This document shows positions 7,314-46,787 of a stretch of 64,000 nt of DNA, piece after piece. The notes under the pieces were generated by a model. It was not told the origin of the DNA. It saw nothing but the letters and a program-made list of their open reading frames with translations, and searched no databases. The stretch spans positions 115,925-179,924 of the forward strand of contig CAWBYW010000016.1 in NCBI GenBank assembly GCA_963792965.1, written 5' to 3'. This stretch comes from an uncultured delta proteobacterium. GTDB lineage: Bacteria; Desulfobacterota; Zymogenia; Zymogenales; Zymogenaceae. The number at the start of each line of letters is the position of its first letter. Positions within the stretch are counted from its first letter, which is position 1. A program made the position numbers and the translations under genes.

Positions 7314-10300
7314 TTACTTTGCGTTCGGCCGTATGGGCTTGGGCGGGATCGGGGTTTTCTTCTCCTCTTTTGGGATCTTTTCGTCGACCGTGGAGAGAAG
7401 CTCGGTGATCTCCGCATCGTCGGGGAGCCCGTTTTTAGCCAGCTTCAGGTACTTCTTTGCCTCGGTATAGTTCTTCATCTGAAAATAGATGAGCCCGAGC
7501 GCTTTTTCCGCCGGCGCGTTTTCGGCCTTGAGGACGAGGGATCGATTGGCCAGCTTCAGCGCCCTATCGAGCTTCTTGTTTTCTTTCGCGTACAGGAGTG
7601 CCGTGTCGGACCAGACCGAGTAGTCGCTCGGGTCAAGCGCGAGCGATTTCTCGTAATATTTGAGGGCCTCCGACACCTTTCCGTTCCTGAGGTAGTAATC
7701 GCCGATGGTACGGAAGGTGGCATAGTCGTTCGGCTTGAGCTTGACCAGCGCAAGGTAGGCCGCCTCCGCCTTTTCGGGGTCGGGTTTGGCCTCATAGGTC
7801 TCGGCAAGCCCGAGCATCGCGGGGTAGTTGTCCGGTTTTGTCGCCAGCGCCGCCGTCAACAGCTCAACCGCTTTGTCATACTGCCCCGTGCGGGAATAGC
7901 ACTGGCCCAACAGATAGTAGACATCGGTGTTGTCGGGGGCCATCTCCCGCGCCTTTTCGAGATACCCGATGGCTTCATCAAACTTCCCGGCGATCCTCAG
8001 CCCGTCGCCAAGGTCGATGTAGGGCCTCGGGTCGTCGGGGTAGCTCTTCATGAGGTTGGTGTTGAATTCACGCAGCTTATCGAGCGCAACGTCGTAATCC
8101 GGCTTTATCGAGAGACAACGCTTGAGGGAGAGCATCGCCTCTTCCGACCATCCCCGCACGGCGAAGATGACGCCGAGGTTGTAGTGGGCCTTGTAGTTTT
8201 CGGGCTGGATGCGCACGACGTTGTTGAAGGCCGAGATCGCCTCGTCATAGGAGCCGAGCTTGACGTAGTTGGTGCCGAGGACGAAATAGAGGTCGGCGTT
8301 GTCCGGCTCGATCTCAAGCGCTTTCCAGATCGTATCGACGGCGAGCTTGTATTGGCCGGTGTTGGAGTAGCACTCGGCGACGTAGAGCATTGCCTGGATG
8401 TTTTTCGGATCCCGTGAGATCACGTCCGCAAAGACCCCGAGCGCCTTCTCGTAGAGTCCCCCGTCGAAATAGGTCTGCCCGAGCAGTATCTGCGCGTCGC
8501 TATAATCCGGCTTGACTTCAAGCGCCTTTCCGAGGGCCTTGGCCGCTTCGTCGTAGTTGGCCAGTTGGTGATAGGCAAGCCCGAGCATGAACAGGCCGTC
8601 GACGTATTCCGGGGAGTAGGAGACCGCCTTCTTGAAATATTCGAGGGCTTCCGGCGTCTTGCCGCCTTCCATCTTCAGAATACCGATCTGATAGTAGGCC
8701 AGGTAGTTATCCGGGGACTGCTCGATCGATTTTTCGTAGTTCAGGGTGGCATTGTCGGTATCTCCGAGCTTCCAGTAGACCTGGCCGAGGCTGTAATAGA
8801 CCAAAAACTGGTTGGGATCGAGCTTGAGCGACTCCTCGTAGGCCGCAATCGACTTGTCGTATTCTTCCCGGTAGTAGTAGACCTTACCGACCCCCTTGTA
8901 GGAGCGGGGGTTGGCCGGATCGATGTCTTGCGCGCGCTCGTAGTAGTCCATGGCCTTGTCGAGCTCACGGTTATCGAGGTAGGTCTCGGCCATGAGGATC
9001 AGCGCATCAAAAAAGCGGGGGTCGATCTTGACTGCCATATCCAAGAGCGCCATGCCGTTGGTCTTTTCTCCCTTTGCGATATAGATATCCGCAAGCGAGT
9101 AGAGGGCCGTCGTGTTCTTCGGGTCGATCTCGACGACCTTCCGGAAGGTCTCGATGGCCGTGTCCTTCTGGCCCAGAAAGGCATAGAGATTGCCGAGGGC
9201 GAGGTAGGCGTCGACATACTTCGGATCCGTGTCGATGGCCTTCTTAAGTATGCGACGATGGCCGATTTCACGTCGCCGGCCTCGACATAGATCCTGGCCC
9301 TGTTATAGTATCCGGGCGCGTATCCCGGTTGTATCTTTATGGCCTTATCGATCGCGGCGATCGCCTTTTTCTTCTCCCCCATGGCAAGGTAGACACGCGA
9401 GAGCTCCACGTAGGCCTCGTAGTAGTCGGGCTTGAGCTTGATGGCCCGCTCCAGCGTGGCGACGGCATCACCGAACCTGCCGAAGGACGCATACGACCTG
9501 CCGATGGCAAGGTACGCCGGGTAGAAATCGGGCTTTATCTTCAACACGCCCTCATAGACCGATATCGCCCGGTCGATATCGCCGATGGCCAGCGCCACTC
9601 TCCCGATGTGGTCGTATCCGTCCACGAAATCGGGCCTGAGCTCCACGGCCTTCAGGTATGCCGCCAGGGCGTCCCGTGATTTCCCCTGGGCCTCCAGCAC
9701 CGCCCCGAGCTCGTCGTATGCCAGGTAGTGGTGGAATCCAGGGCGACGGCCTCGTTGAGGAACTGCTCGGCCATGACGTATTCGCCCTTCTTGAAGTAGG
9801 CGACGCCGAGGCCGTAGTCTATATCGGCATCCTTCGCGTCAAGGGCGAGTGCTCGGGAGAAGACCCCGATGGCGTTATCGGTGTCGCCCGTCAAAAGGTA
9901 GATCGTCCCGAGCTCGGAGAGGACCTTCGGGTTGTCCCCGGCAAGGGCCAGCGCCCGGGTAAGGACTGTCACCGCCTCGGCGTATTCCTTCTGAGCGGAG
10001 AAGACTTCGCCCTTGAGGATATAGATGGAAGGATCGGCGGGGCGCAGCTTCTCGGCCCTCGCGAGAAAGGAGAGCGCACCCTCAAGGTTCCCCGAGGCCA
10101 CCGCGTTTCTTGCCGAGAGGATGAGCGCGTCGAAGTGGTTGGGATCGATGGTCAACAGCGCGTCGAGCGCCGTTTTGGCCCCGGCGAAGTCTCCGAGGTC
10201 ATACGACAGCTTCGCCATGAGGAGGAGCCCCTCCGGGGAATCCTTCGCCGTCTCGGCCGCCTTCTTATACGCGGCGAGGGCTTCTTTCGTCAGGCCCTCG

Positions 10301-10836
10301 GACGCCAGGAGTTTTCCTATCTTGATATATGCCTCGGTATAGTCAGGCTTGATGTCGACGGCCCGATTGTAGGCCTCAAGCGCCCCGTCGCGGTCGCCCG
10401 CGCCCGCCAGCGCATCGCCAAGGTAGTTGTAGGCAATGAACGAATCGCCGACGATATCGACGGCCTTTTTCAGCGGGTCCGTGGCCTCATCAAACCGTTT
10501 GTCCTCGAGGTAGGTCTTGCCGAGGTTGAAAAAAGCCTCGAAGAACTTCGGGTCAATGGTGACGGCCTCCCGGAAGGCCCGGGTAGCATTCTCGTGATCT
10601 CCCATCGCGAGGTAGACGAGTCCGATCTTATTCTCCGGGCGGGGATCACCGGGGGTGAGGCGGTAGGCGGTTTCAAATTCCTTGAGGGCTTCCTGATACT
10701 CGGCGTTGTTCAGGTAAAAATCGCCCTGGCTCATGGCCGAGAGGAACTCGGTATCGTCGGTCTGGCCCACGAGAGGAGGGACTAGGGAAAGAAGAAGCAT
10801 CACACACAAGGCGCACATCCAAACGGTTCGTTTCAT
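7314..10836 (-). CDS. Giant secreted tetratricopeptide-repeat (TPR) protein, about 1180 aa, split into three ORFs by two apparent frameshifts
   Basis: ORFs 9652..10881, 8999..9700 and 7314..9053 each carry continuous 34-aa TPR repeats. They overlap end to start, and each has a nonsense tail. Frameshifts lie at about 9725 and about 9245. N-terminal signal peptide MKRTVWMCALCVMLLLSLVPPLVG. Confidence 0.7.
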
Positions 10837-13679
10837 CTCTGTTCGCTCACAAAATCGCTTAAGAAAATAACGGTAGTCCATCCTATCGGGGAGCCCGACC
10901 CCATACCCTGTGCAAGATCGCGGACGGTCTGGGCATAGCCGTCAAGAAGAGGGGCCTTCCTGGACGCGGTAATCATTCGAGACAGAAAAGGGGATACCTC
11001 GTCCGGGCGCGCCCCCCGGGGGATCAGCAGATAGGGTGCATCCTTCATGAAGGCCAGGTATTCTATCTGGAAAAACTCCCCGGGAGCGGAGTCTTCGTCG
11101 ATGTCCGATACAACGACGAGGGGTGCCTCCTGCTCCCACCACGCCCGGTCGCCCGGATGCGCGAGGAGGAGCACGGTTGGGGCTCCCACGCCCGTCTCTT
11201 TCGTGTCTGGGTCCGGGAGTCGCCTCACGTCCGTAAAGAGGTCTAATAATCCCTTGTCGACAGGGCCGGCGTCTCCGACGACGGTCACGCTATCCGGCAT
11301 CGTCGGGAGGGCCTGAGGGATCATCGACCGGGGAGAAAGACAGGACGTAAGGAATACGGCGTATTCGGCCGCAAGCGGCACGAACGTCCCGTCCCCGGGA
11401 CTATGCCCGAGGGCGTTGAGCGGAAGTGATGAAAGACGAGGCCCGGGAGATATCCCGAGCGTGGTGACGCCGTCGAGCTCCCCGATCAGAGGGGCAATCA
11501 GTATTGAGTAGAGGTGGTCCGATGCCGCGGCAAATGGGGGAAGCGCGGCCGCCGTCGACCCCTCGGGGGCGGGAGCGGCGACGGGGGGTGTGGAGATTTC
11601 CTTCTTTAGGTCCCGCACAAGCCCCGCGGCTTCCTCCTGTGTTGTCCCGAGTTTTACGACGGATGTCCCCCGTGATGTGACCACGAATGCAAATGCGGCC
11701 TCCCCGTCAAAGTAGTAGTGGACGAAGGCCGCGCCGTTCGGCACGATCCGCGCAAGGTCGCCCGCGTCGGGCGGCCCGATGCCCATGAAGGCGGCAAGCC
11801 GAGGGGACCGCCGCGCGATCGAGGACACGGCGTCGGAAAGCGCCGCGTTTGCCTCATCGCGGCGTCGGATGATGTCCGTGCGCGAGGATTCGGCAAGCTT
11901 GGTGAAGTCACCCGACAAAAAGACCCCTTGGGCCGCGATCGCGCGCATCGCCGCGTCCCGAAAAAGGCCCACGAGCTCCGCGTCTGTTTTCTTCAGGACG
12001 GGTGGAGACTGAAAGATCCCTCGCGCCACCCACGATCCCTCGGACGAAATGAGGGCCTCAAGCCCCTCCCTCTCTTCCCCGAGCTCCGCACAGAGGCCCA
12101 GGAGCTTATTAAGGGCTCCCGCACGCTCCTCTGTTCCGAAGGAAAGGAGCGCTGCTTCCGGCACATCCGTCCTGATGTCCTCCGAGGTTCGGACGCAAGA
12201 GGCCAGCGCGTCGAAGGCCTTCTCTTTTTGACCGAGGGCGATCCTCACTTCGGCCTCGGCTAAAAGCGCCGCGGCGCGCGTGAGCGGGACATCCTCGGAA
12301 AACGCGAGCGTATGGGCCGAAAGGGCGGCCGCCTCGGCCCCCTTGAGATCGCCCATGGCGATGAGAACCCGCGCCGTCTCGCAGTAGACCGCCGTCTCGC
12401 CGAGGGTCCAGCCGAGATCCTTTGCCACCATAAGGGCGTCCTTCAGGAACAGCGAGGCCGCCTTTGAATCGCCGGCCTTGCGGTAGGCCGTCGAGAGCCC
12501 TATGAGGGCGGTTTCTCTGACCACTTCGTCCTCGATTCTTTCCCCGAGGGTCTCGGCGACCTTGTAGGCCGCTATGGCACCGGGGAAGTCCCCCTCGCCG
12601 GCGAGGATCCGGCCGAGCGTCAGATAAGCACGGCCCAGCCGCCCGGCATCGGCCAGTCTCTCAAAGATCGTGATCGCCTCTCTGATCTTCGCCTCTCCCT
12701 GTTTGTTCTCTTGCTGGGCGGCGTCAATCTCGGCGCCCAGCATGAGGACATCGCCGACGTCAGGCGCCGGCCCCGATGCCCCCACCTCTTTGAGAGTCTC
12801 ATCGGCCTGGCGCTTTGCGGCCTCTCGATCACCCGTGAGGAAGAGAAGCCGCGCCTGCGCAAGCCCGGCTTCGGCGACGTACTCGGGCCTGCCGAGGGTG
12901 CGTGATAGCTCTTGGGCCGCGGCCAGGTCGTCCCGCGCGCCTGCCGCGTCGCCAAGGGATATCCGTGCCCTCGCCAGCCCCATCAGGCACTGATAGATCC
13001 CTTCATCGTTTTCCGCCGTCCGAAAGATATTCTCCGCGGAGAGGTACGACTCGATGCCCCGAACGCGATCCAGGAGGATGTCGGAGGCGACCTCCGCCTG
13101 GATGAAGATCGCCTGGGCCTTGGAGACGAGGATCTCCTTTTCCGGGGCGGAGAGCTTGGCCGGCGTGAGGGGTTTTGTCTTGAGGTCGGCGATATTATTG
13201 AGGTAGGCCGAAAGGGTGGCGGCATCTATCGTGACCCTGGCCGTCACCAATACCATATCGGAGGTAGGGAACGGGGTGGAAGAGACGACCTCGGTTTTCT
13301 TGATATATTTCTTGTAGTCGGGGATGACCAGGGCGTCCAGCGCGTCCTGGAGGCGGAAGAATTCATCTTCGCCGAGGGTCTGGAAGATAGACGTGACAAG
13401 CGCCCTTTTTTCGGCGTCATCGACGGCGGTCGGAAGCGGCGGCTCCGCATCCGAAGGTGTCTTCTGAGCGGGCGCGCCCAGGCCGAGGGAAAAAATGGTG
13501 ACCCCGTCTTCGCCTCCGTTGCCGGCGCCGAAGAGCGGATGCGCGCCGAATGAGACGAATAGAAGGATAAGGAGCACGACTATGCGGTACGTAGTATGGA
13601 TAATAGCCCGAGAAAAAAAGGTCATCGGATAGATCCTCGCCCCGGCCCGATACGGCCTCAGTTCATCGTCGAACATCAC
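10833..13679 (-). CDS. Large TPR-like repeat protein with C-terminal CHAT-like (caspase/HetF-type) domain
   Basis: 948-aa ORF with an N-terminal hydrophobic segment and a long alpha-helical repeat region with many LxxA motifs. The C-terminal about 300 aa carry a candidate His (FVHYYFDGEA) and a candidate Cys (VFLTSCLSP) reminiscent of CHAT peptidase domains. The assignment is tentative. Confidence 0.45.
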   Translation of the reverse strand: MMFDDELRPYRAGARIYPMTFFSRAIIHTTYRIVVLLILLFVSFGAHPLFGAGNGGEDGVTIFSLGLGAPAQKTPSDAEPPLPTAVDDAEKRALVTSIFQTLGEDEFFRLQDALDALVIPDYKKYIKKTEVVSSTPFPTSDMVLVTARVTIDAATLSAYLNNIADLKTKPLTPAKLSAPEKEILVSKAQAIFIQAEVASDILLDRVRGIESYLSAENIFRTAENDEGIYQCLMGLARARISLGDAAGARDDLAAAQELSRTLGRPEYVAEAGLAQARLLFLTGDREAAKRQADETLKEVGASGPAPDVGDVLMLGAEIDAAQQENKQGEAKIREAITIFERLADAGRLGRAYLTLGRILAGEGDFPGAIAAYKVAETLGERIEDEVVRETALIGLSTAYRKAGDSKAASLFLKDALMVAKDLGWTLGETAVYCETARVLIAMGDLKGAEAAALSAHTLAFSEDVPLTRAAALLAEAEVRIALGQKEKAFDALASCVRTSEDIRTDVPEAALLSFGTEERAGALNKLLGLCAELGEEREGLEALISSEGSWVARGIFQSPPVLKKTDAELVGLFRDAAMRAIAAQGVFLSGDFTKLAESSRTDIIRRRDEANAALSDAVSSIARRSPRLAAFMGIGPPDAGDLARIVPNGAAFVHYYFDGEAAFAFVVTSRGTSVVKLGTTQEEAAGLVRDLKKEISTPPVAAPAPEGSTAAALPPFAAASDHLYSILIAPLIGELDGVTTLGISPGPRLSSLPLNALGHSPGDGTFVPLAAEYAVFLTSCLSPRSMIPQALPTMPDSVTVVGDAGPVDKGLLDLFTDVRRLPDPDTKETGVGAPTVLLLAHPGDRAWWEQEAPLVVVSDIDEDSAPGEFFQIEYLAFMKDAPYLLIPRGARPDEVSPFLSRMITASRKAPLLDGYAQTVRDLAQGMGSGSPIGWTTVIFLSDFVSEQR

Positions 13680-20161: not shown

Positions 20162-23100
20162 TCAAAGGCTTACTTGGCGATGAGCTCGTCCAGCCGCTCG
20201 ATGAGTAATTCGACGCTGAAACGGCTTTTCGACGAACGGGCTTCCCGTAATCTTCAGGAAGGCCTGGGTGTCTTTTCCGAGGACGTCACCGGTGATAAAG
20301 AGAACCCTGTTGGAAAGGCCGGGGTGATATTTCTGAATAAAGGTATAGAGCTCTTTTCCGCCGATACCGGGCATCTTCATGTCCGAGATCACCACGTCAT
20401 ATCGCTTGCCGTTGATAGCCTCGATGGCCTCCTCGCCGCCCGTGCATAGATCCACCCGATGCCCCTCGTCGGCCAACGCTTCAAACAGGAGGTCCCTCAC
20501 GGATTTCTCATCTTCGACCACAAGCACCGACTTTCCGTTTCGCGGTCCGGCCGCCTTTTTCTGCATGGGCCGCTCCGTGCGTTCTTCCTCACTCGTGACG
20601 GGGAGCTCGATGCTAAAGCGTGTCGCCTTCCTTGGGGAGCTTGTCACGTCGATTTTCCCGCCATGCTCACCTATGATGCCGTAGACGATGGCAAGGCCCA
20701 AGCCCGTCCCCTTTCCGACCTCTTTGGTCGTGAAAAACGGATCAAAGATGTAGTTGATGATATCCTTGGGTATGCCCGGCCCGTCGTCCTCAAATTCGAT
20801 CGAGATGGCGCCGTTTTTCAGTACCGAGCGGATCACGAGCGTGCCCCCGCCGGCCGTGACCAGGGCGTCGTGGGCATTGTTGATGAGGTTGATGAAAACC
20901 TGCTGCAGCTGGTAGGGGTCGGCCGAGGTCTTGGGTATATCCTCGGAAAGATCCGTCTGAATCACGACGTTGTCCACCCGCAGCTCATATTCCCTGAGCC
21001 GGTACGATTCCATGATCACGTCGTTGATGGATATCATTTTTCGCTCGGGCTTGTGCTCGCGCGCAAAGGCCAATAGTCCCTGGATGATCTTCGACGAGCG
21101 GAAGGACTCTTTACGGATGATTTCGAGCTTTTCCCGTATGTGGGCCGGTATCTCCTTTCGCATCATCAGATCGGCGTGGCCGATGATGGAGGTCAGGGGG
21201 TTGTTCAGCTCGTGGGCCACCCCGGACAGGATCCCCCCGAGGCTCGAGAGCTTCTCGGCCTGGGCGAGCTGTCGCTCCATTTTCTTTCTCTCGGTGATGT
21301 CCTTGAGGAAGCCCTGGTAGCCGATGATCGCGCCCGACTTGTCCTTCCTGACGACCGCCGTCATCAGGCAGTCGAGCAACTGGCCGTCTTTTCGCGTGAA
21401 CGATATCTCGTGGTCCTTAACGAAACCCCTTTCCGCAAGAAGACGAATAATCCGGTCTCTTTCGTCCGACGGTGAATAGACCTCGGTGAGGTCCAGGCTC
21501 AAGAGCTCTTCCCTCGTGTATCCGGTGAGTTGTTCCGCCGCCCGATTGATGTCGATGATCCGGGCCTCTCTATTCGTCACGACGATGATATCCCGGGAAG
21601 TCTCGAAGATACCGCGGTACCTTTCTTCAGACTCTTTGATTGCCTCTTCGGCCTCTTTTCGCTCGGTGATGTCTCTGATGGTCCCCTGGTAGCCGACGAT
21701 AGCTCCTTTCCTGTCCCTCCTGGCCGCCGCGGTCATGAGGCAGTCCGCATACGTCCCGTCTTTTTTCCGCATAGTCAATTCAAAATCCTTGATAAACCGT
21801 GTCTTTCTATGGTCTCCTTGAATCGATTGCGCTCCGTGAGGATCCTTATAGAAGTAGCTGACGTTTCTGGAGAGGGTCTCCTCCCTCGTGTAGCCGAGGA
21901 TCGTTTCAAACGCCGGATTGACGTCAAAGATAGCTCCTTCTGGCGAGGTAATGAAGACGATATCCTGGGACGTCTCGAAAAAGCCGCGGTATTTCTCCTC
22001 GGACTCTTTGAGGGCCTCCTCGGCCCTTTTGCGCTCCTGTTCGCTCTCAATAGACCGACAGGGCAAATGCGATATCTCCGGCTACTTCCACGAGCAGGGA
22101 TGCTTCCTCATTATCGAAGACGTCGGCCTGGTCCCCATAAACCCCCAGCGCGCCGAAGACCTGTGTACCGACCACAATGGGCAGCGCCATGCATGAGCGG
22201 TAACCCCTTTTCAGCGCCTCCTTCCGCCAGGGCAGGAAGTCCGGATCATGGGCGGTATCATTGGTTATCCACGGGCGCTTCGTTTTGATCGCCGTCCCCA
22301 TCGGGCCCCTTGCCGGTTTTCGTGCTCATCCCAGGTTACGGTGATGTTCTTGAGATATCCGTCCTCAAATCCCCAGTAGGCCGCCGGGATGACTCGTTTG
22401 TGCCCCTCTTCGACCAGGCCGATCCAGACGAAGTGGTAGCCGCTCACCTCGCACAGGATCTCGCATGCTCCCTCAAGGATCGTATCTTTATCCTTTCACC
22501 TTCGCGATCAACTGGTCGATGTTCCTCAGCGACCGGAGGAGCCGGTTGAGGTGGGCGATCCGCTCCTGCGCCCGCTTCCATTCGGTGATGTCCCTCCCGA
22601 GGCCGTGCGCCTCGACGACTTTCCCGTCCTTCCAGATCAGGGTTTCCCTCATCTCCACCGTCCTGATTTCTCCGCCCTTATCAACAATGGAAAGATCGAA
22701 GGGGCCGATATCCTCGCCCTTTCGCTGTCTCTCGAAGAGCTCGGGAATCTTTTTCACTGATTCCGGGGCCAAGAGCTCAATGTAGTTTTTCCTGATCAGC
22801 TCATCCCGGGTATACCCGGAGACCCGCGCGAGGGCCCGGTTGAGATAGAGTATCTTTCCGGTTCCGTCCGTCACGTAGACGATGTCGTCGATGTTCTCCA
22901 CCAGCTCCCGATAGCGCCGTTCCGACTCCCTGAGCGCATCCTCCGCCCTCTTACGCTCGGTGATGTCGCGCCCGATCCCCTGAAATTCCACGATGCGATT
23001 TCCGCTCCAAACCAGTTTTTCCCGGGTCTCGATGGTCTTCAGCGTAACCGTCGGCATCAAAGACATCAAGGCGGAAGATCCCGACATCCTCACCGGCGCG

Positions 23101-24495
23101 CTGGCGCGCTGAAGACGTCGGCGGCGGTCTCCAATGAGCCGGGCGCAAGGAAATCGGCGAAGCTCCGTCCAATCACCTCCTCCCGTCGACGTCCGATAAA
23201 CTCCTCCGCCGCGCTGTTCAGAAAAGTGATTTTCCCCTGCTCGTTGGTAACGTAGACGATATCCGCGATATTCTCGACCAGCTCCCGGTAGCGTTGTTCC
23301 GACTCCCTGAGAGCCAGCTCGGCCTCCTTGCGCCTGCTGATATCCGTTACGATAACCTGAACAGCCGGCTTTCCCCGATACGTGAGAGGTGTCGCAAGGA
23401 CATCGACGGGAACGGCGGTGCCATCCAGCCTGACGTAGACATTCTCCGCCGGGTAGAGCCCTTCCTCTCCGGACAACATCCGCTTAATCCGGTCCTCGGC
23501 ATCTTTCAGATAGTCGGGGTGGATGATCTGCTTAATATCACGGCCGGTTATCTCGTCGGGGGATCCCGCGCCGAGGATCTTTGCCCCCTCCATATTCGTG
23601 AAAACGATCTTCCCCTCGGACTGGACGGCTATACCCACGGGGGCGATCTCAAGGAGTTTACGGTAACGCTCCTCGCTCTCGCGGAGGGCTTCCTCGGCCT
23701 CCCTGCGCTCCGTAGTGTTTCTTCCCACGCCCAGAAAGCCGGAGGGCCGCCCGTCGGCGTCCCTGAGGAGCGTCACGTTGATCTCGCCCCAGAAGGTGGA
23801 ACCGTCCTTCCGACAAAACTCGAGCTCCATCGTTCGGGATATCTTCACGTTCGGGTCGTAAAGCCGCTCAGGCGTCAGGTCTTCCGCCATCGCCCCGGCG
23901 GCGATCCGATACGAATCGGGGGCCATGCTTTTTTCAAGAGGAAGGTCACGGAGCTCCTCGAGGCTGTACCCCCGGTTGAATGCGACCGAAGGATTCGAGT
24001 ACGTCGTGCGAAAGTCCATGTCCATCATCCAGACGGTGTCGTTCATATTCTCGGTGATGATGCGGTAGCGCTCGTCTTTTTCGCGCAGGGCCGCCTCGGC
24101 GCGCTCTTTTTCGATCCGGAGCCTTTTTTGTTCGAGGGCGACGGCGACGGCGGGCCCCAGCCCTTCATATGCTCCTTGATGACGTAGTCGGCCGCGCCCG
24201 CCTTCATGCACTCGACGGCGGTGTCCTCGTTTTGCGATCCGGTCAGGATGATCACGGGCGTTATCGGCGCGCGCTCAAGGGTAAGTTTGAGCGCCGTCAG
24301 CCCGTCAAAGGAGGGGAGCTTGAAGTCCGAGACGATGAGGTCGGGACGGAACGCCTCGAGGGCCGCGAGGAACTCCTCGCGCGTCTCGACCGTCCGGAAG
24401 ACACACTTCTTGCAGCTCTTGCCGATCTCCCGCTCGGCCAATTCCGCGTCCGTCGGGAGGTCTTCGACGATCAGGATGCGCGTGGGCTCATCCAT
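20162..24495 (-). CDS. Very large hybrid sensor histidine kinase (REC-PASxN-GAF-PAS-PAS-HisKA-HATPase-REC), fragmented into at least 5 ORFs by apparent frameshifts
   Basis: ORFs 24043..24495 (REC), 23090..24211 and 22488..23093 (repeated PAS with ERYR motifs), 22265..22447 plus 22047..22301 (GAF) and 20162..22066 (PAS, HisKA H-box, HATPase, C-terminal REC) overlap end to start. The real sequence continues across each junction in another frame. Confidence 0.7.
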
Positions 24496-31483: not shown

Positions 31484-33072
31484 GTGTACGGAACGGATGA
31501 AGGATACGACGGGTGGGAGGGATATCTTGCCTTATTCATGATTTTCGCGGTCGGCACCGCCCTCAGGGCGGTCATGCTTTTTCACCAGACCGTTATCTCG
31601 CCCGATAGTCCCGGGTATATTTATAATGCCCTCGCAATCGGTAAGGAAGGGCTGAAAAGTCTCTTCGCAGGCGGTTTCGCCGGGAATTTCTCCATCTACC
31701 CCATCTTCATCTACCTTACCAATCTCGTGATCGGCGATCCGGTATTGTCCGGTCAGCTGGTCTCGCTCGTATTCGGTTCGCTCGCTATTTTGCTCGTTTA
31801 TCCCATCACGAAAGAGATAATGGGTGCGCGGGCCGGGCTCATCGTCGCCTTTCTCGTGGCCGTTCATCCGCACCTGATCAGGTATTCGGGGATGGTCCTG
31901 AAAGACTCGACCCTGATCTTCTTCGCCCTCGGGGCTGTGGCCCTGGGTCTGTTTGGGTGCACGAGAAGGAACAGGCTCCTCATCGTCCTTGCCGGGATCT
32001 TGGCATGGACCACGGCGGTCGTGCGTCTGTATGGCATCATCGTCGTCCCCTCGCTCGCTCTCGCCATCGTTGTCTATACCCTTTTTCAGAGGGAAGGGAT
32101 AAAGGAGACGCTCCTTCGTCTGGCCCTCTTTCTCTTTCCCCTGCCCGTCGTGGGGTACATCGCGTTCCTCATCTTTATCGGGCCCCACAATGAATTCTTC
32201 ATCGAGAGTTTCCTGAAGGTCCTCACCATTGTCGTATCCTTTGTTCATCAGACCGGGACCTACCGGGACCTGCTTTTGCGTGGCAATCCCGAAATCAGTC
32301 GTGGTTATCTGGACGTGATAACCCGCTATCCCCGGGTTTCGGCCGCCGTTCATTTCGTTGCTGTTTTTGGAACCGCGTTCTTTTTTTTCTTTTTCGTCCT
32401 TTTTCTGTTGGGCATCTACATTGACAGGAAAAATCTCCTCAACAAGGGCCCGCGCCTCTTCATTCTTTCGTTTGCCTCGGTATACATCTTTTTCGATCTT
32501 GCCATTCTCATGGTCTTCTTCTTCCTCACGAAAAGGCAGCTCATGCCGCTCGTTATCGTTCTTCTCCCCTGGTCGGCGCTCACGTTCGAAAGGGGCATCA
32601 CGTGGCTCACGGACTATTCGCGTGCCCGCGCAGAAGAAGAACGCGGCAGATCCTTCGGGCGACAGTTCCGCTCCTCGCCGTTATCTGGATCGTCGGCGCC
32701 TTCTCTTACACAAGTTCTCCGACCGCGGAAGGTGCGCTGCTCGGGTACAAAAGGGCGGCGGGCGAGTATATCAAGGAGACGGCAGGCGGCCATCCCCTGA
32801 TTCTTCTTCCCCACGCCGATGCCGAAGGACTGGTCGTCTTCTATGCGGGCGCCGAGGGCATATCCTTCGATGACCCGGCCACAATCGAGAAGATGATCGA
32901 TACCGATGACCCCAATATCATCTTGTGGGATACGGTCCTCGGCCCCCTGCCGAAGGAGTTTCCTCTGCTGGTTGAGCACGGCAAAATCGAGCATATCACG
33001 ACGATACCGGGCTCAGGCACCAATGTTATCTATATCTATCGGAATACCCGAAACGAAACCGGCAGGCGGTAG
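31484..33072 (+). CDS. ArnT/PMT-family (GT39/GT83-like) membrane glycosyltransferase with C-terminal periplasmic domain (apparent frameshift at about 32620)
   Basis: Polytopic N-terminal region with a DxD-less PMT-like pattern. The tail of ORF 31484..32800 is nonsense, and ORF 32602..33072 continues in another frame. Confidence 0.6.
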
Positions 33073-34580: not shown

Positions 34581-35605
34581 TCCGTATGCACGCCTCCGAA
34601 ATAGACGCGGAAAACCTCCCGGGCCACCGGCGCGGCATCCTCACCCCCCCGGCCGTGGTAGAGGAAGACGACCACGGCGATCTCGGGGTTCTCGGCGGGG
34701 GCAAAACCCAAGAACCAGGCGTGAGTCGCCCAGCTGGAGCCGAGGAACTCGCCGGTGCCGGTTTTGCCCATAATCTCGTGCCCGTCCGGCGTCCCCTTGA
34801 CGGCGGTTCCGTACGCCGCCGCATCGCGCATTCCCTCGGCGAGGATCGGCGCCGCGCGGGAAACCTCTACCTTCCTGTTGAGTCTCGGCGAAAATGAACC
34901 GATATCGTCTGCGGTGGGGGTCACGCGGGGAACCCAGATACTGCCCCCGTTCACGAGGGCCGAAAGATTCACGATCACCTGAAGGGGCGTCGCCGTGACG
35001 TTGTCGGTGTCTCCGATGACATACTCACGGGCAAACGCCGGCTCGGGGGGGATGAGCCTTCCCGCCTCCTCCTGTGGAAGGTTGACCCCGGTCTTTTCTC
35101 CAAACCCGAGCTCGGAAAGCCCCCGGTAGGTGGTGTCGGCGCCCAGCGTCTCGGCAAGGGAAAGGAAATAGAGATTACACGAGTAGGCGATCCCGCGGAC
35201 AAGGTTGAGATCACCGTGTCCGGGGGGGTACCAGCAATCGTATTTCGTTCCCGATATAACGGCACTCCCGGTACACCTGAAGCGAGCGTCGGGAGAGATA
35301 CGCTTCTCTTCGATCCCTTTCCAGACGCTCACAAGCTTGACGAGCGAGCCGGGGGGAAAGGCCCAGCGTGTCGCCATGTCGGGCCCCACCATCGCTCTGA
35401 TGCGTCCCGTCTTCACGTCCATGACGACGACCGCCCCGGTCCGGCCCGCCAGGGCGTCGGATGCCGCGCTTTCGAGGAGGGCGTCGCCTTTCAACACCTG
35501 TTCCGGGCCCGGCCTGCAACCCGAGGCGAAGAGAAATAAAAGGGCGACCCCCCCGATGAGGGGTCGCCGAAAGAGTAAACGAATCCGCCGCCGGATCCCC
35601 GTCAT
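34577..35605 (-). CDS. Penicillin-binding protein, transpeptidase-domain-only (PbpC-like partner of alpha-2-macroglobulin)
   Basis: Lipobox-like LFLFASGC. Transpeptidase motifs include SxxK (PGSLVKLV), SCN (YSCNLYF) and KTG (GKTGTGEF). There is no transglycosylase domain. It overlaps the A2M stop by 4 nt. Confidence 0.75.
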   Translation of the reverse strand: MTGIRRRIRLLFRRPLIGGVALLFLFASGCRPGPEQVLKGDALLESAASDALAGRTGAVVVMDVKTGRIRAMVGPDMATRWAFPPGSLVKLVSVWKGIEEKRISPDARFRCTGSAVISGTKYDCWYPPGHGDLNLVRGIAYSCNLYFLSLAETLGADTTYRGLSELGFGEKTGVNLPQEEAGRLIPPEPAFAREYVIGDTDNVTATPLQVIVNLSALVNGGSIWVPRVTPTADDIGSFSPRLNRKVEVSRAAPILAEGMRDAAAYGTAVKGTPDGHEIMGKTGTGEFLGSSWATHAWFLGFAPAENPEIAVVVFLYHGRGGEDAAPVAREVFRVYFGGVHTD

Positions 35606-38600
35606 TTCCCCTCGGTGATGACAAGGCTTGAGCTTCCCGTCCTTCCGAAGCGGTCCGGGAAGTACATCAGGTACGCCTCGGCCGGCATGACACCGTAGGT
35701 CCCCGGGTTTTGGGCGCGGAGGATATACTTGAAGACATAGGTCCCCACGTCGACGTAGTCCATCGATAGAGCGATCCGCTCATCCCGGAATTCCCTTCCG
35801 GCAAACCACCAGTCCGCATCGCCGGTATAGAGATCGTCCCCGGAGATGACATAGTTTTTATCGTCGCTGATGGCCTCATAGCCCGCCGGGTAGTAGTCCT
35901 CCAGCAGGAAGTATTGGGCCTTCTTGTCGGTCGTGACCGAAAGCTCCACGAGGATCTCGTCCCCGCTACTGACCGGGCCGCTGAGCGGCACCTTCGCGTA
36001 GATGAGCTCTCCCTTCTTGGGCACCTTCTTGAGGAGGTAGTACTTTCTGCTCACGGCAAATCCGGCGTTCAGCGGGGCTATCGAGGGGGCCGCGCTGTAG
36101 TGCGTGAAGGTCGAGGAATAGTAGAGGCTACCCGGCCCGTCCTTCTTGATGACGATCGTATTGGGGCCGGTCTTGAGATCCCCTTCCTTGACGGTAATCG
36201 TTCCCCCCTCGGTGAGCATCGTCTCCTTGGTGATGTGGCTCTTCTTGAGCTGTTTGCCGTTGAGGGTAAGCGTCATGGTGTAGTTCGGCTTGATCTCCCC
36301 GGTCCGGGTGATGTAGTCCGTCAGGGCATAGATGATCTTCCCCGTGGCCTTGGTGGAGCGCCAGTAGCTTCCGGTCCGGTTGATGATAAGCCAGCGGATC
36401 GTCTTGGGGATGAGGGGATTATTGACGTCGCGCATGGCCATCACCCGCAAAACGTACGCGGTGGTCTCCAGGGGATCGGCCTCCCAGTCCCACCAATAGA
36501 AGTCCTCTCCGACGTAACCCCAGTGAACATAGCCGTTCTCCTGGATCTTTTCCTTCATGAGCAGGTCATACAGGACGTTGGCCTTCTCCCGGATCCCCTC
36601 GTTCTCGTAGGCCAACAGCAGCATCGCCTGAGAAATGGGGGTGAGCTTGTCGCGCTTCTCGAACATCTCGTCGAGCCACGCGGTCTTGAGCTTGTCCGTG
36701 TAGGACAAGACGTAGAGGGCGTAGACCTTGACGGAGTCCTGATCGATCTTGCTCAGCTGAGAGATGAGGGACGCGGTGCCGCGCTTGATGACGCCCTCGT
36801 CCACGGTGATGGGAATGCCTGCCTCGGGAAGGAGGCGTTTCGCTTCGAGGAGCCCGTACAACACGTAGGCGGTCATGTAGGGATCGGTCTCGTCGAACTC
36901 GTACCACCCCCAGCCGTTATCGTCGTGCTGCCGTTTGTAGAGCACCATGAGCCCGCTCTTGATGTAGGCGGGGAGGTCCTTCTCTACGCTCTTATCGGAA
37001 AGGTCAAGCTTCTTTAATACCGACGCGACCATGACTGATGGCAAGAACCTTGCCATTACCTGCTCGTTTCACCCATAGGGGTAGCCGACGAGGAATGGTA
37101 TAGCGGCAAGCATTGTGTTGACGAGCGATGGACTGGTGGTAATGGTGAGCTCAGCAGCGTTCTTTATCGTGTTGGCGGGCTTGTTGACCGTCACCGTGAG
37201 CGTCCCGGAGTCCTTGATGATCTCTCCCATATCGTTCTTTGTCTCTTTGATGCCGAGCGGGAGGATCGGCACCTTTATCTCCATTCCGTCGGAGACCTCG
37301 TTGGTCATCGCCTTTGCCGTGAGAACGGCACTTCCCACGAGGTCCGCCCTGACGTGCCAGTCGACGCGCTTCTCTCCGTTTTTCGGGACGATTGCATCGA
37401 CCGGAACGCCGGAAGCGAGCGTCAATCCCTTTGCGTCGAACGTGAAGTGCACCTTCTTGTCGGTCGACAGGTAATTATGGGCGATGGTGGAGATTACGAG
37501 GTCGTCCCCCTGGCGCAGAAATCGCGGCGCCTCTATGCGGACGAGTAAGTCCTTGCGCTCGATGACCCGGTAGGTAGTCTCCCCCATGCTGTCGCCCGTG
37601 GTCACCCCCCGGACCGTCGCACGCCAACGCGTCAGGTTGTCCGGGAAGGTGACGGTGACCGTGGCCATACCCTTTGCGTTGGTCGTGATCGTGGGCGACC
37701 AGTACATCGTGTCCTTGAAGTCCTTTCGGATCAGCGGTTGAACGAGCGTGTCTCCCTTGAAGTCGGCAAGCTTCGTCTCTTTTTCCGGAAGTCCCGCCAG
37801 GAGTCCTTTCCGGTGAGAGTATCCGTAAAAGCGGAAGTAGAGGGATGACGACGTGTCCACGGAATGATAGCGCAGCGAGTAGAAATACTTCTGGATTTCG
37901 TCGACAAGCTCCGGTGAGATGGCGTAGATGGCGTCGTCCACGACGCCGAGCGACACCTCTGCCGACACGGGTTTGCCTGTGCTGTCCGTCGTCTTTATCG
38001 TAAAGGTGCCCTTTTCTTGCGGCTCGTACGTCGCCTTATTGGAGGTCACCTCGACGTTGATGAACTTTTCGGTCGGTGGGATGATGATGTTCTTGCTGTC
38101 CGAATAGAGCTCATCGTTGAAGATCGCGGCAACCGAGAGGTAGATGTTGGGGGTGTATCTCTCCTTTATGGGGAGATCCAGCATCGCCGTGCCACCCGTG
38201 GCTTTGATGACTCGGCTATCAAGGATCGAGTCTCCCTCGGTGGTAATCAACAGATAGGTATCCTTCACCGGCGCGGCGATCAGGATGTGGGCGGTATCGC
38301 CCACCGCGTAGGTATCCTTGTCGGGGATAATCGTGACGCCGCCCTCCGACGTCCCGCCGTAGGCATACCCCTCCGTAAAGGAATACGATGAGTCCTTGGC
38401 CGTGGTGGAGTTGCCCGCGTTATCGAAGACCGTGGCGATGAAATTGACGTCGCCCACGTTTTTCACCGTATATTCGATGACGGCGTCCCCACCGGAGTTC
38501 GTCCTTCCCGAAAGGGTGGCCGAGCTCGTGACCTTGCCCCCCTGCCAGTCGGTCTCCGTGACGATGAGCGTCACCGGCACATTCGCCACACCCTTGTTGT

Positions 38601-40254
38601 CAAAGTCGGAGACGTTGACCGTGATCCGCGCCTTATCCCCCGGCGCGTAGACCCAGCGGTCGGGACGTAGCGAAACGGTGTAGTTTGACCGAACGACCTT
38701 GACGACGCTGCTGGTGGTAACCACCCGGCGCGAGAGATCGGTAACGTTGGCCTCGATGGTGAAGGTATAGTCGTTGTCGGGCGACTCAAGGTATTGCGAC
38801 GTGTCTACCGTGAGCCTGAGCTTCCCGGCGTTGTCGAGCATAGCCGTGCCACTGTCCACCATGACCTTCTCGGTGGCGGTCCAGTAGTCTTCGTCCATGA
38901 AGTACCAGCCCCAGTCGTACCCCCACCACCAGGGGCGCTCGTAGACCGACCGGTAGACCGTATAGTCCACCTTGGCCTCCGTTACGGGGCTGCCGAAGTA
39001 GTAGCCCGCCTCGATATCGGCCGTGATCGTGTCGCCCCGGATGTAGACGTTCTTATCCGTCCTGATCTTGACCTCGTATTCGGGCTTCTTGTACTCCTCC
39101 ACCTTGAAGCTGTTGTAGTAGTTCTGTCCATTCAGTCCCACGACGATCTGATATTCGCCGAGCGAGGGCTCCTCTCCGAGGGTGAAGTCCCCCGAGAGGC
39201 TCCCGTACTTATTAATCTTATAGTTGTTCCGGAAGACCTCGTCGCCCTTGGCGTCGTCGATGATGACCAGGTAGTCGTCGCCGGTGTCGGGAACCTTCAG
39301 CCCCGAGTCGGTGGCGTTTCTCAGGATCGAGCGAAAATGCACCGTGTCGCCGGGACGGTAGACGGGTCGGTCGGTGTAGGTGTAGACCTTGTCGCTTGCT
39401 TCCCCTTCCCCGTAGGCATAGGGGTCGGCCAGGGTGAAGTTCTCGCCGTCCTGGGCGAAGACATAGATGACGTCACTCTCGGTCGCTTTCACCTTGGAGT
39501 AGTAGATCCCGTCGGAGTCCGTCTTCCCCTTGAAGAGGAGTTTTTTCTGGTTGTCGTAGACCGATACCTTAACGCCTTTCATCGGTTTGCCGGTTACCCG
39601 GTCGGCCACGTAGATAAGGCTGTCGGTGCTCGAGTTCTTCACGACAAACGACATGGGGGTAACGACGACCATCGTATAGGCCACCGAATCCTCAAAGACC
39701 GCCTCGACGAGGTAGCACCCCGGTTTCGGGACTTTGACGTCTATGTTGTGGTACTCCCACTGTCCACTGCCCGAGATGACCAACTTCTCCTGCCAGCGGT
39801 TGAGGAGCTTGAACTGGGTCAGGATCGGGAAGAGCTCGTAGGTCTGTGGCGCGGGTGAGACGGGCTCCTGGGCGTGCGGCAGGCCGAGTGCCGAGACGAC
39901 ATCGTCTCGGATGTTGTCGGAGAGTTTTGAGCGATAGTCGTCCCGGAAGAGTTCTACCCCCTTCCGTTTGATCGCCCCAACCATCTCGGCGGGGGCCGAT
40001 GTCCCCCGTTTCGTCGTCACCACCGGCGAGTGGACGTCATCGAGCCCGAGGAAGTACGATTTCGGATCGTCTACCCGGTAGAGCCGGATATCGAGGGACG
40101 GGACATCCATGGAGGAAACGGTGACGGTGACGGGCTCCCCCGGAGCGAAGATCTTGTCCGTGGAGAGCTCAAAGGAGCCTGCGAGCGTCACGGCCGGCAG
40201 TGTTAAGAGCAATACGATCGAAAGAATAAGGGACTTTTTCATAGTTTCCCTCAA
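35602..40254 (-). CDS. Periplasmic alpha-2-macroglobulin, about 1550 aa, interrupted by a single in-frame TGA at the thioester-cysteine position
   Basis: Signal peptide followed by about 1000 aa of MG-type beta-sandwich repeats. Then comes GYPYG-[TGA]-NEQ, aligning with the canonical GYPYGCxEQ thioester motif. An alpha/alpha-toroid thioester-containing (TED) domain follows (DDNGWGWY...), then a C-terminal receptor-binding-like domain. The two ORFs (37069..40254 and 35602..37056) are in the same frame and separated only by the TGA at 37069..37071. Confidence 0.8.
37038..37056 (-). promoter_or_regulatory. Perfect 8-bp stem-loop 12 nt downstream of the in-frame UGA (candidate bacterial SECIS element)
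   Basis: On the mRNA: UGA AACGAGCAGGUA AUGGCAAG-GUU-CUUGCCAU. The apical loop begins with G and lies about 20 nt from the UGA. Confidence 0.4.
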
Positions 40255-43911: not shown

Positions 43912-44779
43912 TCAGGATCGGCCGAGCGCCGAGAGGATCTCGGCCAGCGCCCGATCCGAGCGATACGTATTGGTCTTGATGTTCCATCCCTTCTCCTTCA
44001 AACCGATTAAGAGCTGGGTAACCTCGGGCAGAAACGGCCTCACGCCGTCGAGCGCCGCCCGGTCGGAAAAGAGTTCTTCCGGGGTGCTGTCTAGTTTGAT
44101 CTTCCCCTTCTCGATAACGACGATCCGGTCGGCCACCCGGATGATTTCTTCCATGTCATGGGAGATGATGATGACGGTCTTGTTCTTGGCGTTGAGGGCC
44201 TTGATGTGCCGGATGGTCTCGGTCCTCGACTGGGGATCAAGTCCCTGGGTGGGCTCGTCGAATATGAGTATGGGAGGATCCATAGCGAGGATCGAGGCGA
44301 TGGCGACCTTGCGCTGCTCACCGCCGGAAAGGGTGAACGGCGAGCGCGTCCTGAGCCGGTCGATGTCAAGGTTGACGAGGCCTGCCGCATCACGACACTC
44401 GCCTTTCGACCTCCTCTTTCGAAAAACCCCCTCGGTTGACGAGGGAAAACGCGATCTCTTTCTCGACCGTCTCCTCAAAGAGCTGGTGCTCGGGATACTG
44501 AAAGACGAGCCCTACCATTTCCCGCAGCCTGCCGGTCTTCTTGGTGGCGGGCGTCAGGTCAAAATCACCGACGCGGACGCTCCCCTTCGCGGGCGTCAGC
44601 AGTCCGTTGAGGTGCAGCGCCAGCGTCGTCTTCCCCGAGCCGGTGCGCCCGATCAGCGCGACGAACTGGCCCTCCTCGATCGAGAGGTTCACCCCCGAGA
44701 GCGCCTCCTTTTCCAGCGGCGTATTGGGGAAAAAGACATGCGAGAGGTCTTTTATCTCGATGAGCGGTGCGGTCGTCAT
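43912..44779 (-). CDS. ABC/ECF-type transporter ATP-binding protein (CbiO/EcfA-like), apparent frameshift at about 44410
   Basis: Walker A (GRTGSGKTT) and Q-loop in ORF 44390..44779. Signature (LSGGEQRKVAIA), Walker B (ILIFDEPTQGLD) and H-loop in ORF 43912..44478. Confidence 0.7.
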
Positions 44780-45033
44780 GAGACTTTGTAGACCATGTCG
44801 CCCGGCCGAACCCTGTCTTTGATCTTGATCCCCACGAGTGCGCCTGACGCGACCTCGGTTACCGGGGCGTTGTCGATCTGCATCGACTCCACCACTTCCG
44901 TGAAATCGGTCGTCGCACCCTTGAAGCGGAGCTCGTCCCCAACCTTGAGGGAGCCCTCGACCTTTATGGCGGCAACCGACGGCTTGGCAAAGAACTTGAT
45001 GACCTCTCCGATTTTTACCTCACTTGACATCAC
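44776..45033 (-). CDS. Small beta-barrel protein resembling EF-Tu/SelB domain II (tentative)
   Basis: 85-aa ORF with a G-rich beta-barrel pattern (IKVEGSLKVGDELRFKG...GALVGIKIKDRVRPGDMVYKV). It lies immediately downstream of selA. Confidence 0.35.
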   Translation of the reverse strand: MMSSEVKIGEVIKFFAKPSVAAIKVEGSLKVGDELRFKGATTDFTEVVESMQIDNAPVTEVASGALVGIKIKDRVRPGDMVYKVS

Positions 45034-45052
45034 ACTCCTCCTCCCGTGGTAG

Positions 45053-46524
45053 TCAGCATGATCTATCCTTATTCATTCCCTTCTCATGGCCGACAGGATT
45101 CCGTTTGCGAGGTCCGTGACCTCCCTCTCCAGGACGGTTCGAGGATCGATGACGAGGCTCTCGTCCGAGATTCGTGCGATAATGGTCGGATGCTTGCGTC
45201 CTCAAGCGTCTCTCGAGCGCCTCGGGGCTCTCGGCCAGCGGAGCAATCGTTACCACCCTTGTCGGGATCTGTGCGGTGGGAAATGCCCCGCCGCCCACTC
45301 CCGAGAAGTCATCGGCGGTCGTGACGTGGAACTTCGGATGGGGCGTGGCCGCCAGCAGCTTCACGATCCTTTTGGCCCTTTTCTTCGTCTCGTCATAGGA
45401 CATCGTAATCATCGCCAGGACCGGGATCTTTTTTCGCGCATCAAACGGGTCCCGATAAATCATCAGGGTCGATTCGACGGCGGCAAGCGACAGCTTATCG
45501 ATCCTCACGGCCCGCGCCAGTGGGTTCTTTTTAATGCGGTCCGATCGGGTCCGCCTCCCCTACGATGAACCCCGCCTGGGCACCGCCCAACAGCTTATCG
45601 CCCGAAAAACGTAATGACATCGACGCCCGATTTAATCACTTCCGAGACGGTCGGCTCATGGGGGAGGCCCCAGGGCCCGAGATCCATGAGCGAGCCGCTG
45701 CCGAGGTCCTCCATGACCGGGATGTCATATTTTTTCCCGAGCCCGACGAGCTCGGCGGTCGACACTTCCTCGGTGAACCCGACGATCCGGTAATTGGAGG
45801 TGTGGACCTTGAGGAGGAGCGCGTCTGGCCGACCCGATGGCGCTCTCGTAGTCCGAAAGCCCTCGTCCGGTTCGTCGTGCCGACCTCTCTGAGGCGCGCG
45901 CCGCTCTTTTCCATGACATCCGGGATACTAAAAGCGCCGCCGATCTCCACCAGCTCTCCCCGTGAGACGATGACGTCCCTGCCGTCGGCAAGAGTATTGA
46001 GCGCAAGCAACACGGCCGCGGCGTTGTTGTTGACCGCAAGGCCCGCCTCCGCGGAGGTGATATGGGCGATCAGGTCGGAAACGTGGTCGTGGCGGGATCC
46101 CCGCTCTCCGCGCTCGACGTTGAATTCGAGATTGGAATAGCCCGAGGCGATGCGTACGATATGCTCGAGGGCCTCCGCGGCGAGGGGCGCGCGGCCGAGG
46201 TTTGTATGCAAGATAATCCCCGTGGCGTTGATGACGGGCGCAAGCTGACGGCGTGACCGATTTGATCAGCCACTGCTCGATGAGCGACAAGAGCTCCGGC
46301 TCCGAGACTTCGGCGGGATGCTCTTTGGACATGAGCTCTTTTCGCGCGGACAAAATGGCGCCTCTCACCGCCTCCTTTACCACCATCCTCGGAAAGCGCC
46401 TCGATAGTTCCGTGACCATGGGGTGAGCCAGCAGCTTATCCACCGCGGGGAGTTTGGCGAGAGGGGATTTTTGTGCCGGGTTTTCCGACTTTCTTGGCAT
46501 GGCGCCGCTCGAGATTTTTTCCAT
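45053..46524 (-). CDS. selA: L-seryl-tRNA(Sec) selenium transferase SelA, fragmented into 4 or more frames
   Basis: N-terminus KLPAVDKLL. Core [11 protein letters not shown]...[56 protein letters not shown] is nearly identical in pattern to E. coli SelA (PLP-lysine region). The C-terminal domain is [20 protein letters not shown]... The pieces lie in ORFs 45928..46524, 45636..46211, 45725..46039 and 45053..45508. Confidence 0.75.
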
Positions 46525-46787
46525 CTATACCATACTTTGACGGATTTCTCAAGGAAAATAAGGCTCTATGGGCGACGAACCTGACCCTCCCGCGCGGTTC
46601 TCAGTTCGGAAATGGAGATTTTGACCCTCAGGCGAGCGAAGGGCTCGGGGGGCCGAGCCCCGCCAAGACAAACGATTCCGCCGCTCATTATCTGACGGTA
46701 AAGGTAACTGAAGTCAGCTCCGCTCCACCCGAATCGGAGCCGTTCATGCGCAGGTCGTAGCTTCCGGGGGTCGTCGGGCCACAAGGC

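Follow-up and report, generated by a model that had tools for sequence, protein, structure and literature searches.

In a 64,000-nt stretch of contig CAWBYW010000016.1, from an uncultured delta proteobacterium of the family Zymogenaceae (the whole stretch is called the window below), a selA gene is broken into eight pieces, and sequence comparison indicates, with a probability that we put at roughly 0.78, that this shattering is a consensus error of the assembly and not gene decay. Read in this way, selA would be a normal, functional gene for L-seryl-tRNA(Sec) selenium transferase, and its seven frameshifts would be single-base insertion errors in a long-read or incompletely polished metagenome consensus, packed into about 1.2 kb of poorly supported sequence. 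Why they should be packed so locally we can only suggest: a dip in coverage, a stretch held by one or two reads, or an unpolished patch would each produce such a pattern. With pyridoxal phosphate (PLP) on the lysine of its SGDK motif, the enzyme would turn Ser-tRNA(Sec) into Sec-tRNA(Sec), and the selenocysteine (Sec) so made would serve at least one client, an alpha-2-macroglobulin (A2M) encoded downstream whose thioester codon is UGA. A preliminary description of the locus had weighed trait loss against an artefact that hides an intact SelA near a candidate selenoprotein; the latter is favoured by relatives with open frames, by damage that consists of insertions only, by the lack of any relaxation of selection and by similar clusters in Nanopore-sequenced members of the same family.

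The identity of the gene follows from several profile matches. In an open reading frame (ORF) profile search, the fragments from 46524 to 45053 on the minus strand, which carries all features of selA and of the small gene behind it, match PF12390 (Se-cys_synth_N; E = 2.5e-10 for the N-terminal fragment) and then the SelA family PF03841, of which positions 9-126, 158-211 and 242-346 are covered in succession and collinearly. The span ends at a stop codon at 45075..45073 and is distributed over all three minus-strand frames. The earlier statement that all parts of SelA are present and collinear within about 1.5 kb is thus confirmed (1.45 kb), and so is the fragmentation itself; the "four or more frames" it had counted must have meant fragments, as only three frames exist on that strand. 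The hand-stitched product is a full-length match, at 576 bits, to TIGR00474, the NCBI equivalog model for SelA (model length 455, cut-off 267.9 bits). Minus seven bases, the gene encodes a protein of 482 aa that is free of in-frame stops and scores 586.3 bits over model positions 2-451, within the range of six intact relatives (586-598). It has the N-terminal tRNA-binding domain, the PLP core with the SGDK lysine motif (residues 306-309) and the C-terminal domain, it agrees with the family at 114 of the 117 near-invariant columns (at least 97% conserved), and its nearest intact counterparts in the protein collection, all from metagenome-assembled genomes (MAGs) of deltaproteobacteria, share 70-73% identity with it. 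What one expects of a selA gene and does not find in the window is an uninterrupted frame, which is open in the relatives L002, L003, L004, L010 and L011.

The interruptions themselves are well defined (Table 1). Frameshift-aware protein-to-DNA alignment of the window gene to seven homologues recovered the same six +1 shifts with each of them, and a seventh, near the C-terminus, was added by DNA alignment to the two close open-frame relatives L010 and L011. Since the same routine returned zero shifts in five intact genes of the window (pfkB, HDAC, LactB, MagC and the 4.65-kb A2M gene), it does not invent them at this level of divergence. All seven are insertions, and there is no deletion. The fourth falls two codons ahead of the SGDK motif, and the seventh changes the end of the protein from AMEGNE to AMRRE. 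A sequence or methylation motif shared by the insertion sites (TCGG/CCGA or GCGC), looked for by eye only, was discarded, such motifs being too common at 59% GC.

Two close relatives carry the same gene without the insertions. L010 is a Logan contig of 1296 bp (run ERR11596056) that matches the window at about 98% nucleotide identity and encodes an identical (100%) version of the small protein downstream; it reads the last 280 selA codons in one frame, lacking insertions 2-7, so that the window differs from it by six single-base insertions and no deletions. L011, a JGI contig of about 90% identity found via the pfkB protein cluster, has an open frame over the first 298 codons and lacks insertions 1-4, and three of the four insertions that the window shows against it are at the same places as against L010. 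The gene is also free of frameshifts in L002 and L003, and the names and sizes of these four records suggest short-read or k-mer assemblies; for L003, a k87-named and apparently short-read assembly, the zero was obtained by frameshift-aware alignment. Closer genomes did not emerge from other searches: a whole-genome scan returned nothing above 73% identity (one Candidatus Zymogenaceae genome and three Microflora Danica (MFD) MAGs), JGI contigs, scanned for exact copies of the window allele at insertion 4 in both versions (extra base present or absent), gave no match, and a protein search for near-identical fragments with the N-terminal 229 residues of SelA gave distant matches only.

The spectrum of changes argues in the same direction. 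In natural neutral change, substitutions far outnumber indels and deletions are at least as common as insertions. Over the 843 nt of selA common to the window and L010, six insertions, all on the window side, stand against 10 differing codons (about 11 nt) accumulated over both branches, and the adjoining 420 nt shared with L010 hold six substitutions and no indel. With indel-to-substitution ratios of 0.05-0.2 and 6-12 substitutions on the window branch, the probability of at least six indels ranges from 8e-7 to 0.036, and is at most 1.5e-3 except in the most permissive combination. Seven insertions to no deletion, and six insertions to some 11 substituted nucleotides, do not resemble the indel spectrum of natural decay. 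Neither in-frame stops nor an excess of non-synonymous or derived changes mark the gene as a pseudogene: selA differs from L011 at 45 synonymous and 22 non-synonymous codons, neighbouring pfkB at 58 and 17, and with outgroups used to polarise the changes, derived replacements number 6 (N-terminal part) and 2 (C-terminal part) on the window branch, and 9 and 4, respectively, on the sister branch. As the window branch carries no excess of replacements and the synonymous to non-synonymous pattern is like that of pfkB, selA was under purifying selection essentially to the present.

Frameshifts elsewhere in the window, and in related genomes, are also informative. The description of selA as the densest frameshift cluster of the window proved correct: seven shifts fall in its 1.45 kb and six verified ones in the other 62.5 kb (Poisson P ~2e-10 under a uniform rate). 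Twelve of these 13 are net +1, including five in four neighbour genes, all within 42-51.5 kb around selA. Because these neighbours bear the same kind of shift, some indel-making process must act on the contig in unrelated genes. Dense clusters of this type are known from close by: the Microflora Danica MAG catalogue rests on Nanopore reads alone, assembled with Flye and polished once with Medaka (PMC12313526), and three of its MAGs (L004, L005 and L008) belong to the same family. Their A2M genes contain 13, 10 and 11 frameshifts, respectively; the majority are +1, and as many as 8, 6 and 7 of them fall within 1.2 kb, a density as high as that of selA in the window. Their selA genes have one +1 shift each in L005 and L008 and none in L004, itself a Nanopore MAG.

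Several observations weigh against consensus error as the explanation. Clustering is extreme, with 4.8 shifts per kb in selA and about 0.1 per kb in the rest of the window, which rules out uniform sequencing noise, and the flanking pfkB (1 kb) and small downstream gene are free of shifts. Just two or three of the seven insertion sites lie in runs of at least three identical bases. The corrected protein deviates at three of the 117 near-invariant columns (E to D, R to S and T to S), and three such changes are reached by just two of 114 SelA family members. Finally, an apparent deletion of about 630 nt, which takes in most of a neighbouring gene, lies 170 nt upstream of selA. It is on account of the clustering, the scarcity of homopolymer sites, the near-invariant changes and this loss that we retain a small share of our confidence for a genuine and very recent pseudogene, which we nevertheless regard as unlikely. 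In that case the strain would have inactivated selA and be losing the Sec trait, leaving A2M truncated at codon 1062; a shift density some 50 times the window background and confined to one gene would be what neutral decay among selected neighbours leaves behind, and the deletion in the adjoining 235-aa gene would fit. Neither selB, selD nor tRNA-Sec was found in the 64 kb, in which Rfam and ARAGORN detect no RNA genes at all, and this too could be counted for trait loss; but sel genes are usually dispersed around the genome, so their absence from one window says little. Against decay stand the insertions without deletions and with hardly any substitutions, a frame without stops and with an undiminished hidden Markov model score, the branch without excess amino-acid change and an A2M gene that, together with its putative selenocysteine insertion sequence (SECIS), is untouched over 4.65 kb. 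Moreover, the +1 shifts at five places in neighbour genes call for a technical process on this contig regardless of what happened to selA.

We consider a mixed case, in which one frameshift or the nearby deletion is real and the rest are consensus errors from co-assembled strains 1-2% apart, very improbable. A strain of about 1.6% divergence does exist, as L010 proves, and positions 46246, 45610, 45539 and 45195 can be read as both alleles of a synonymous third-position variant set in series (ACG/ACT to ACGT). However, by a rough estimate that was not computed, such a pattern is expected by chance at about one third of random insertion sites, so that a fit at four or five of the seven does not stand out clearly from chance. 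The strains also differ in the small gene and in pfkB, yet neither carries insertions, a sparing that the idea leaves unexplained. Programmed recoding of selA, by +1 ribosomal frameshifting or transcriptional slippage, could claim that every shift goes in one direction and that two sites follow the codon AGG, which is rare in E. coli and at which +1 frameshifting has been described in that species, but it is effectively refuted by close relatives (L010 and L011) that encode the same protein in one frame and by seven sites that share no common motif, stop or hungry codon, or slippery run of at least eight bases.

The most interesting item of this analysis lies about 8 kb from selA (5-8 kb downstream). 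The A2M gene reads in one frame through a single in-frame TGA, at the position of the thioester cysteine, and is alignable over its full length through that codon at 79% identity. The codon is TGA in the three MFD relatives too and TGT in L003 (GYPYG-C-NEQ), and a degenerate exact scan of JGI contigs yielded eight further A2M genes with TGA, so the UGA and the hairpin behind it recur in at least 11 other contigs (three MFD MAGs and eight JGI contigs). The hairpin folds into an 8-bp stem with a GUU loop and is missing from the Cys form of L003. Across 11 sequences (10 of them distinct), each of codons +1 to +10 after the UGA is represented by one codon, and equally conserved residues just before and after them use two to four. 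The freezing of synonymous sites there points to selection on the A2M RNA, as expected of a bacterial SECIS. A UGA aligned with the cysteine of homologues, conserved flanks and a downstream hairpin under apparent RNA-level selection are what one looks for in a selenoprotein, and judging from these features the lineage very probably makes a Sec-containing A2M and the trait looks alive. As the UGA would be the maintained state of A2M, selA would be needed to read it. The earlier suggestion that A2M is a selenoprotein gene on its way out, seen just ahead of a TGA-to-TGC conversion, thus finds no support. Recent prokaryotic selenoproteome reviews (PMC9312934, PMC13188914) make no mention of Sec in A2M, nor did full-text literature searches find any, and the Sec-A2M family may be undescribed.

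Downstream of selA lies a small gene whose product had been likened to domain II of EF-Tu and SelB. It likely starts at the ATG (84 aa), behind a strong Shine-Dalgarno sequence (Table 1). Its match to Pfam GTP_EFTU_D2 (PF03144) stays below threshold (28.3 bits, cut-off 30.3), many of its homologues bear a precomputed match to that family, and the protein belongs to a widespread group (462 hits) whose source labels include "translation elongation factor-like protein", "IF-2" and "putative protease". A profile of 27 members finds EF-1alpha domain 2 at E = 3e-4 and also EF-Tu domain 2, and SelB more weakly (E = 0.028). The AlphaFold model (pLDDT 91.9) is all beta and bears out the domain-2 barrel; Foldseek assigns a probability of 1.00 to matches with EF-Tu, IF2, the U32 C-domain and Pbp11, with TM scores of 0.85 for the U32 peptidase C-terminal domain (PDB 4HE5), about 0.8 for domain 2 of IF2 and EF-Tu, and 0.72-0.74 for Pbp11 (PDB 7ANU). 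On these models the protein is an ordinary free-standing barrel of the EF-Tu-domain-2 type. The likeness to EF-Tu therefore holds for the fold, and the link to SelB is not specific: SelB is outranked as a match by EF-1alpha, EF-Tu, IF2, the U32 C-domain and Pbp11, and a single barrel of 84-85 aa has neither the GTPase domain nor the C-terminal winged-helix SECIS-binding domains of SelB. The gene follows selA only in this clade and has unrelated neighbourhoods in two MAGs of other phyla, one from Pseudomonadota and one from Eisenbacteria. With these homologues in other contexts and not beside selA, a Sec-specific role was rejected and a dedicated part in Sec insertion is unlikely. Our best guess, by analogy with the free-standing archaeal barrel Pbp11, which binds tRNA in gel shifts (PMC9540759), is a small module that binds tRNA ends; it would stand next to selA through clade-specific gene order and not as part of the Sec machinery.

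Gene order around selA is conserved: pfkB, the 235-aa gene, selA, the 84-aa gene, an ABC ATPase gene, several unknowns, MagC, A2M and a transpeptidase gene. The block reappears in L012 (3470-10261), a less closely related genome whose SelA is 56% identical. A2M of L012 is called as one product of 1555 aa and may therefore be a Cys form, in which case the linkage of selA and A2M would not be restricted to Sec forms. The 235-aa gene stands between pfkB and selA in six of six relatives, and the loss of most of it from the window (the 46525-46787 region) points to a genuine structural change of the strain, although an assembly fault may also have caused it.

The glycosyltransferase shift, on the plus strand, rests on a second piece of 156 aa that aligns with residues ~395-540 of proteins of 526-550 aa. 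Overlapping same-strand ORF pairs at 28.6, 29.3 and 60-61 kb were rejected as frameshifts, for Pfam shows them to be different genes with over-extended starts. Two further minus-strand arrangements may be frameshifts or separate genes: three consecutive TPR ORFs that overlap by about 50 nt (7314-10881), and a receiver-domain ORF that overlaps a PAS ORF by 169 nt (23090-24495).

Table 1. Coordinates of the selA locus, the A2M gene and the frameshifted genes discussed in the text (window positions unless a relative is named)
Feature	Position	Strand	Remarks
selA coding region as in the window	45073..46524	-	complete collinear SelA, interrupted by seven 1-nt insertions
Insertion 1	46246	-	extra A, TC[A]GCTT, outside homopolymer; alignment to L011
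Insertion 2	45854..45858	-	GCTTTCGG with an additional base, either TT to TTT or G to GG; alignments to L010 and L011
Insertion 3	45825	-	extra G, GCCA[G]ACGCG, beside a substitution; relatives GCCACCGCG; absent from L010 and L011
Insertion 4	45605..45610	-	ACGTTTTTCGG; T4 to T5 against L011, or extra G against L010; alignments to L010 and L011
Insertion 5	45539	-	extra C, GGA[C]CGC; alignment to L010
Insertion 6	45195	-	extra A, CGC[A]AGC; alignment to L010
Insertion 7	45084	-	extra A, ATG[A]GAA, four codons ahead of the stop; alignment to L010
Small beta-barrel protein, intact	44776..45033	-	85 aa from GTG 45033, or likelier 84 aa from ATG 45030
Shine-Dalgarno sequence ahead of ATG 45030	45035..45045	-	GGGAGGAGGAG; read from sequence
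Remnant of 235-aa secreted (signal-peptide) protein with two tandem repeats	46691..46777	-	last ~30 codons
Bacterial A2M gene	35602..40254	-	one frame of 1550 codons (4.65 kb), free of frameshifts, single in-frame TGA
In-frame TGA of A2M	37069..37071	-	at thioester cysteine position, GYPYG-U-NEQ
SECIS-like hairpin	37038..37056	-	AUGGCAAG-GUU-CUUGCCAU; begins 12 nt past the UGA
621-aa protein gene	42065		net +1 shift; homologous gene intact in L002 and L003
ABC ATPase gene	44395		net +1 shift; homologous gene intact in L002 and L003
AAA-kinase-like gene	48604, 49112		net +1 shifts at two sites; homologous gene intact in L002 and L003
Memo-like gene	~51500		net +1 shift; homologous gene intact in L002 and L003
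PMT_2-type glycosyltransferase gene	~32640 (ORFs 31484-32800, 32602-33072)	+	deletion-type shift
Frameshifted A2M gene, MFD MAG L004	17245-20435		UGA and hairpin intact
Frameshifted A2M gene, MFD MAG L005	16141-18834		UGA and hairpin intact
Frameshifted A2M gene, MFD MAG L008	16325-20866		UGA and hairpin intact

Taken together, we think it likely that selA is intact and sits in a conserved block with an apparently undescribed client, a periplasmic A2M that would use Sec in place of its thioester cysteine and so form a protease trap armed by a selenoester; less likely is a very recent loss of selA in this strain alone, which would leave its UGA-containing A2M stranded. If the former is true, selenocysteine would serve here in a structural warhead and outside redox chemistry, as a selenoester where a thioester is usual, which would widen known selenoprotein chemistry. 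Should the frameshifts be real, the window would instead show, as is rarely seen, a bacterium in the course of losing selenocysteine with the UGA gene still carried. A more general lesson is that when a gene from a long-read metagenome bin looks "shattered", trait loss should be concluded only if the reads themselves support it, and that the indel-to-substitution ratio, the direction of indels and comparison with short-read relatives are useful tests for such genes. The clustered A2M shifts in the MFD MAGs are likewise a warning for pseudogene calls in that catalogue.

Set beside known systems, the pattern of damage has its closest parallel in the Nanopore-only MFD MAGs, which share dense, clustered and mostly +1 shifts in conserved genes, at the same locus in three MAGs. 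They differ in being noisy throughout, at about 1 shift per kb, whereas the window is clean outside 42-51.5 kb and ~32.6 kb, and the likeness is one of frameshift pattern. The genes at the selA end of the block are ordinary members of known families. With SelA (TIGR00474; PF03841 and PF12390), of which the E. coli and Aquifex aeolicus proteins are the well-studied enzymes, the window gene shares the full-length match, the N-terminal domain and SGDK, and differs in a frame broken seven times. The small barrel resembles Pbp11 of Pyrococcus abyssi (7ANU), PF1XE1 and the U32 peptidase C-domain (4HE5/4HE6) in consisting of one all-beta barrel, some 85 residues long, at a sequence identity of 20-23%; compared with the elongation factors it has no GTPase domain and is therefore not one of them. 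Lastly, the A2M gene has the domain set of known bacterial A2M with a CxEQ thioester (A2M, TED_complement and MG domains), with MagC upstream and a transpeptidase downstream, and departs from them in a UGA in place of the thioester Cys codon, followed by a SECIS-like hairpin.

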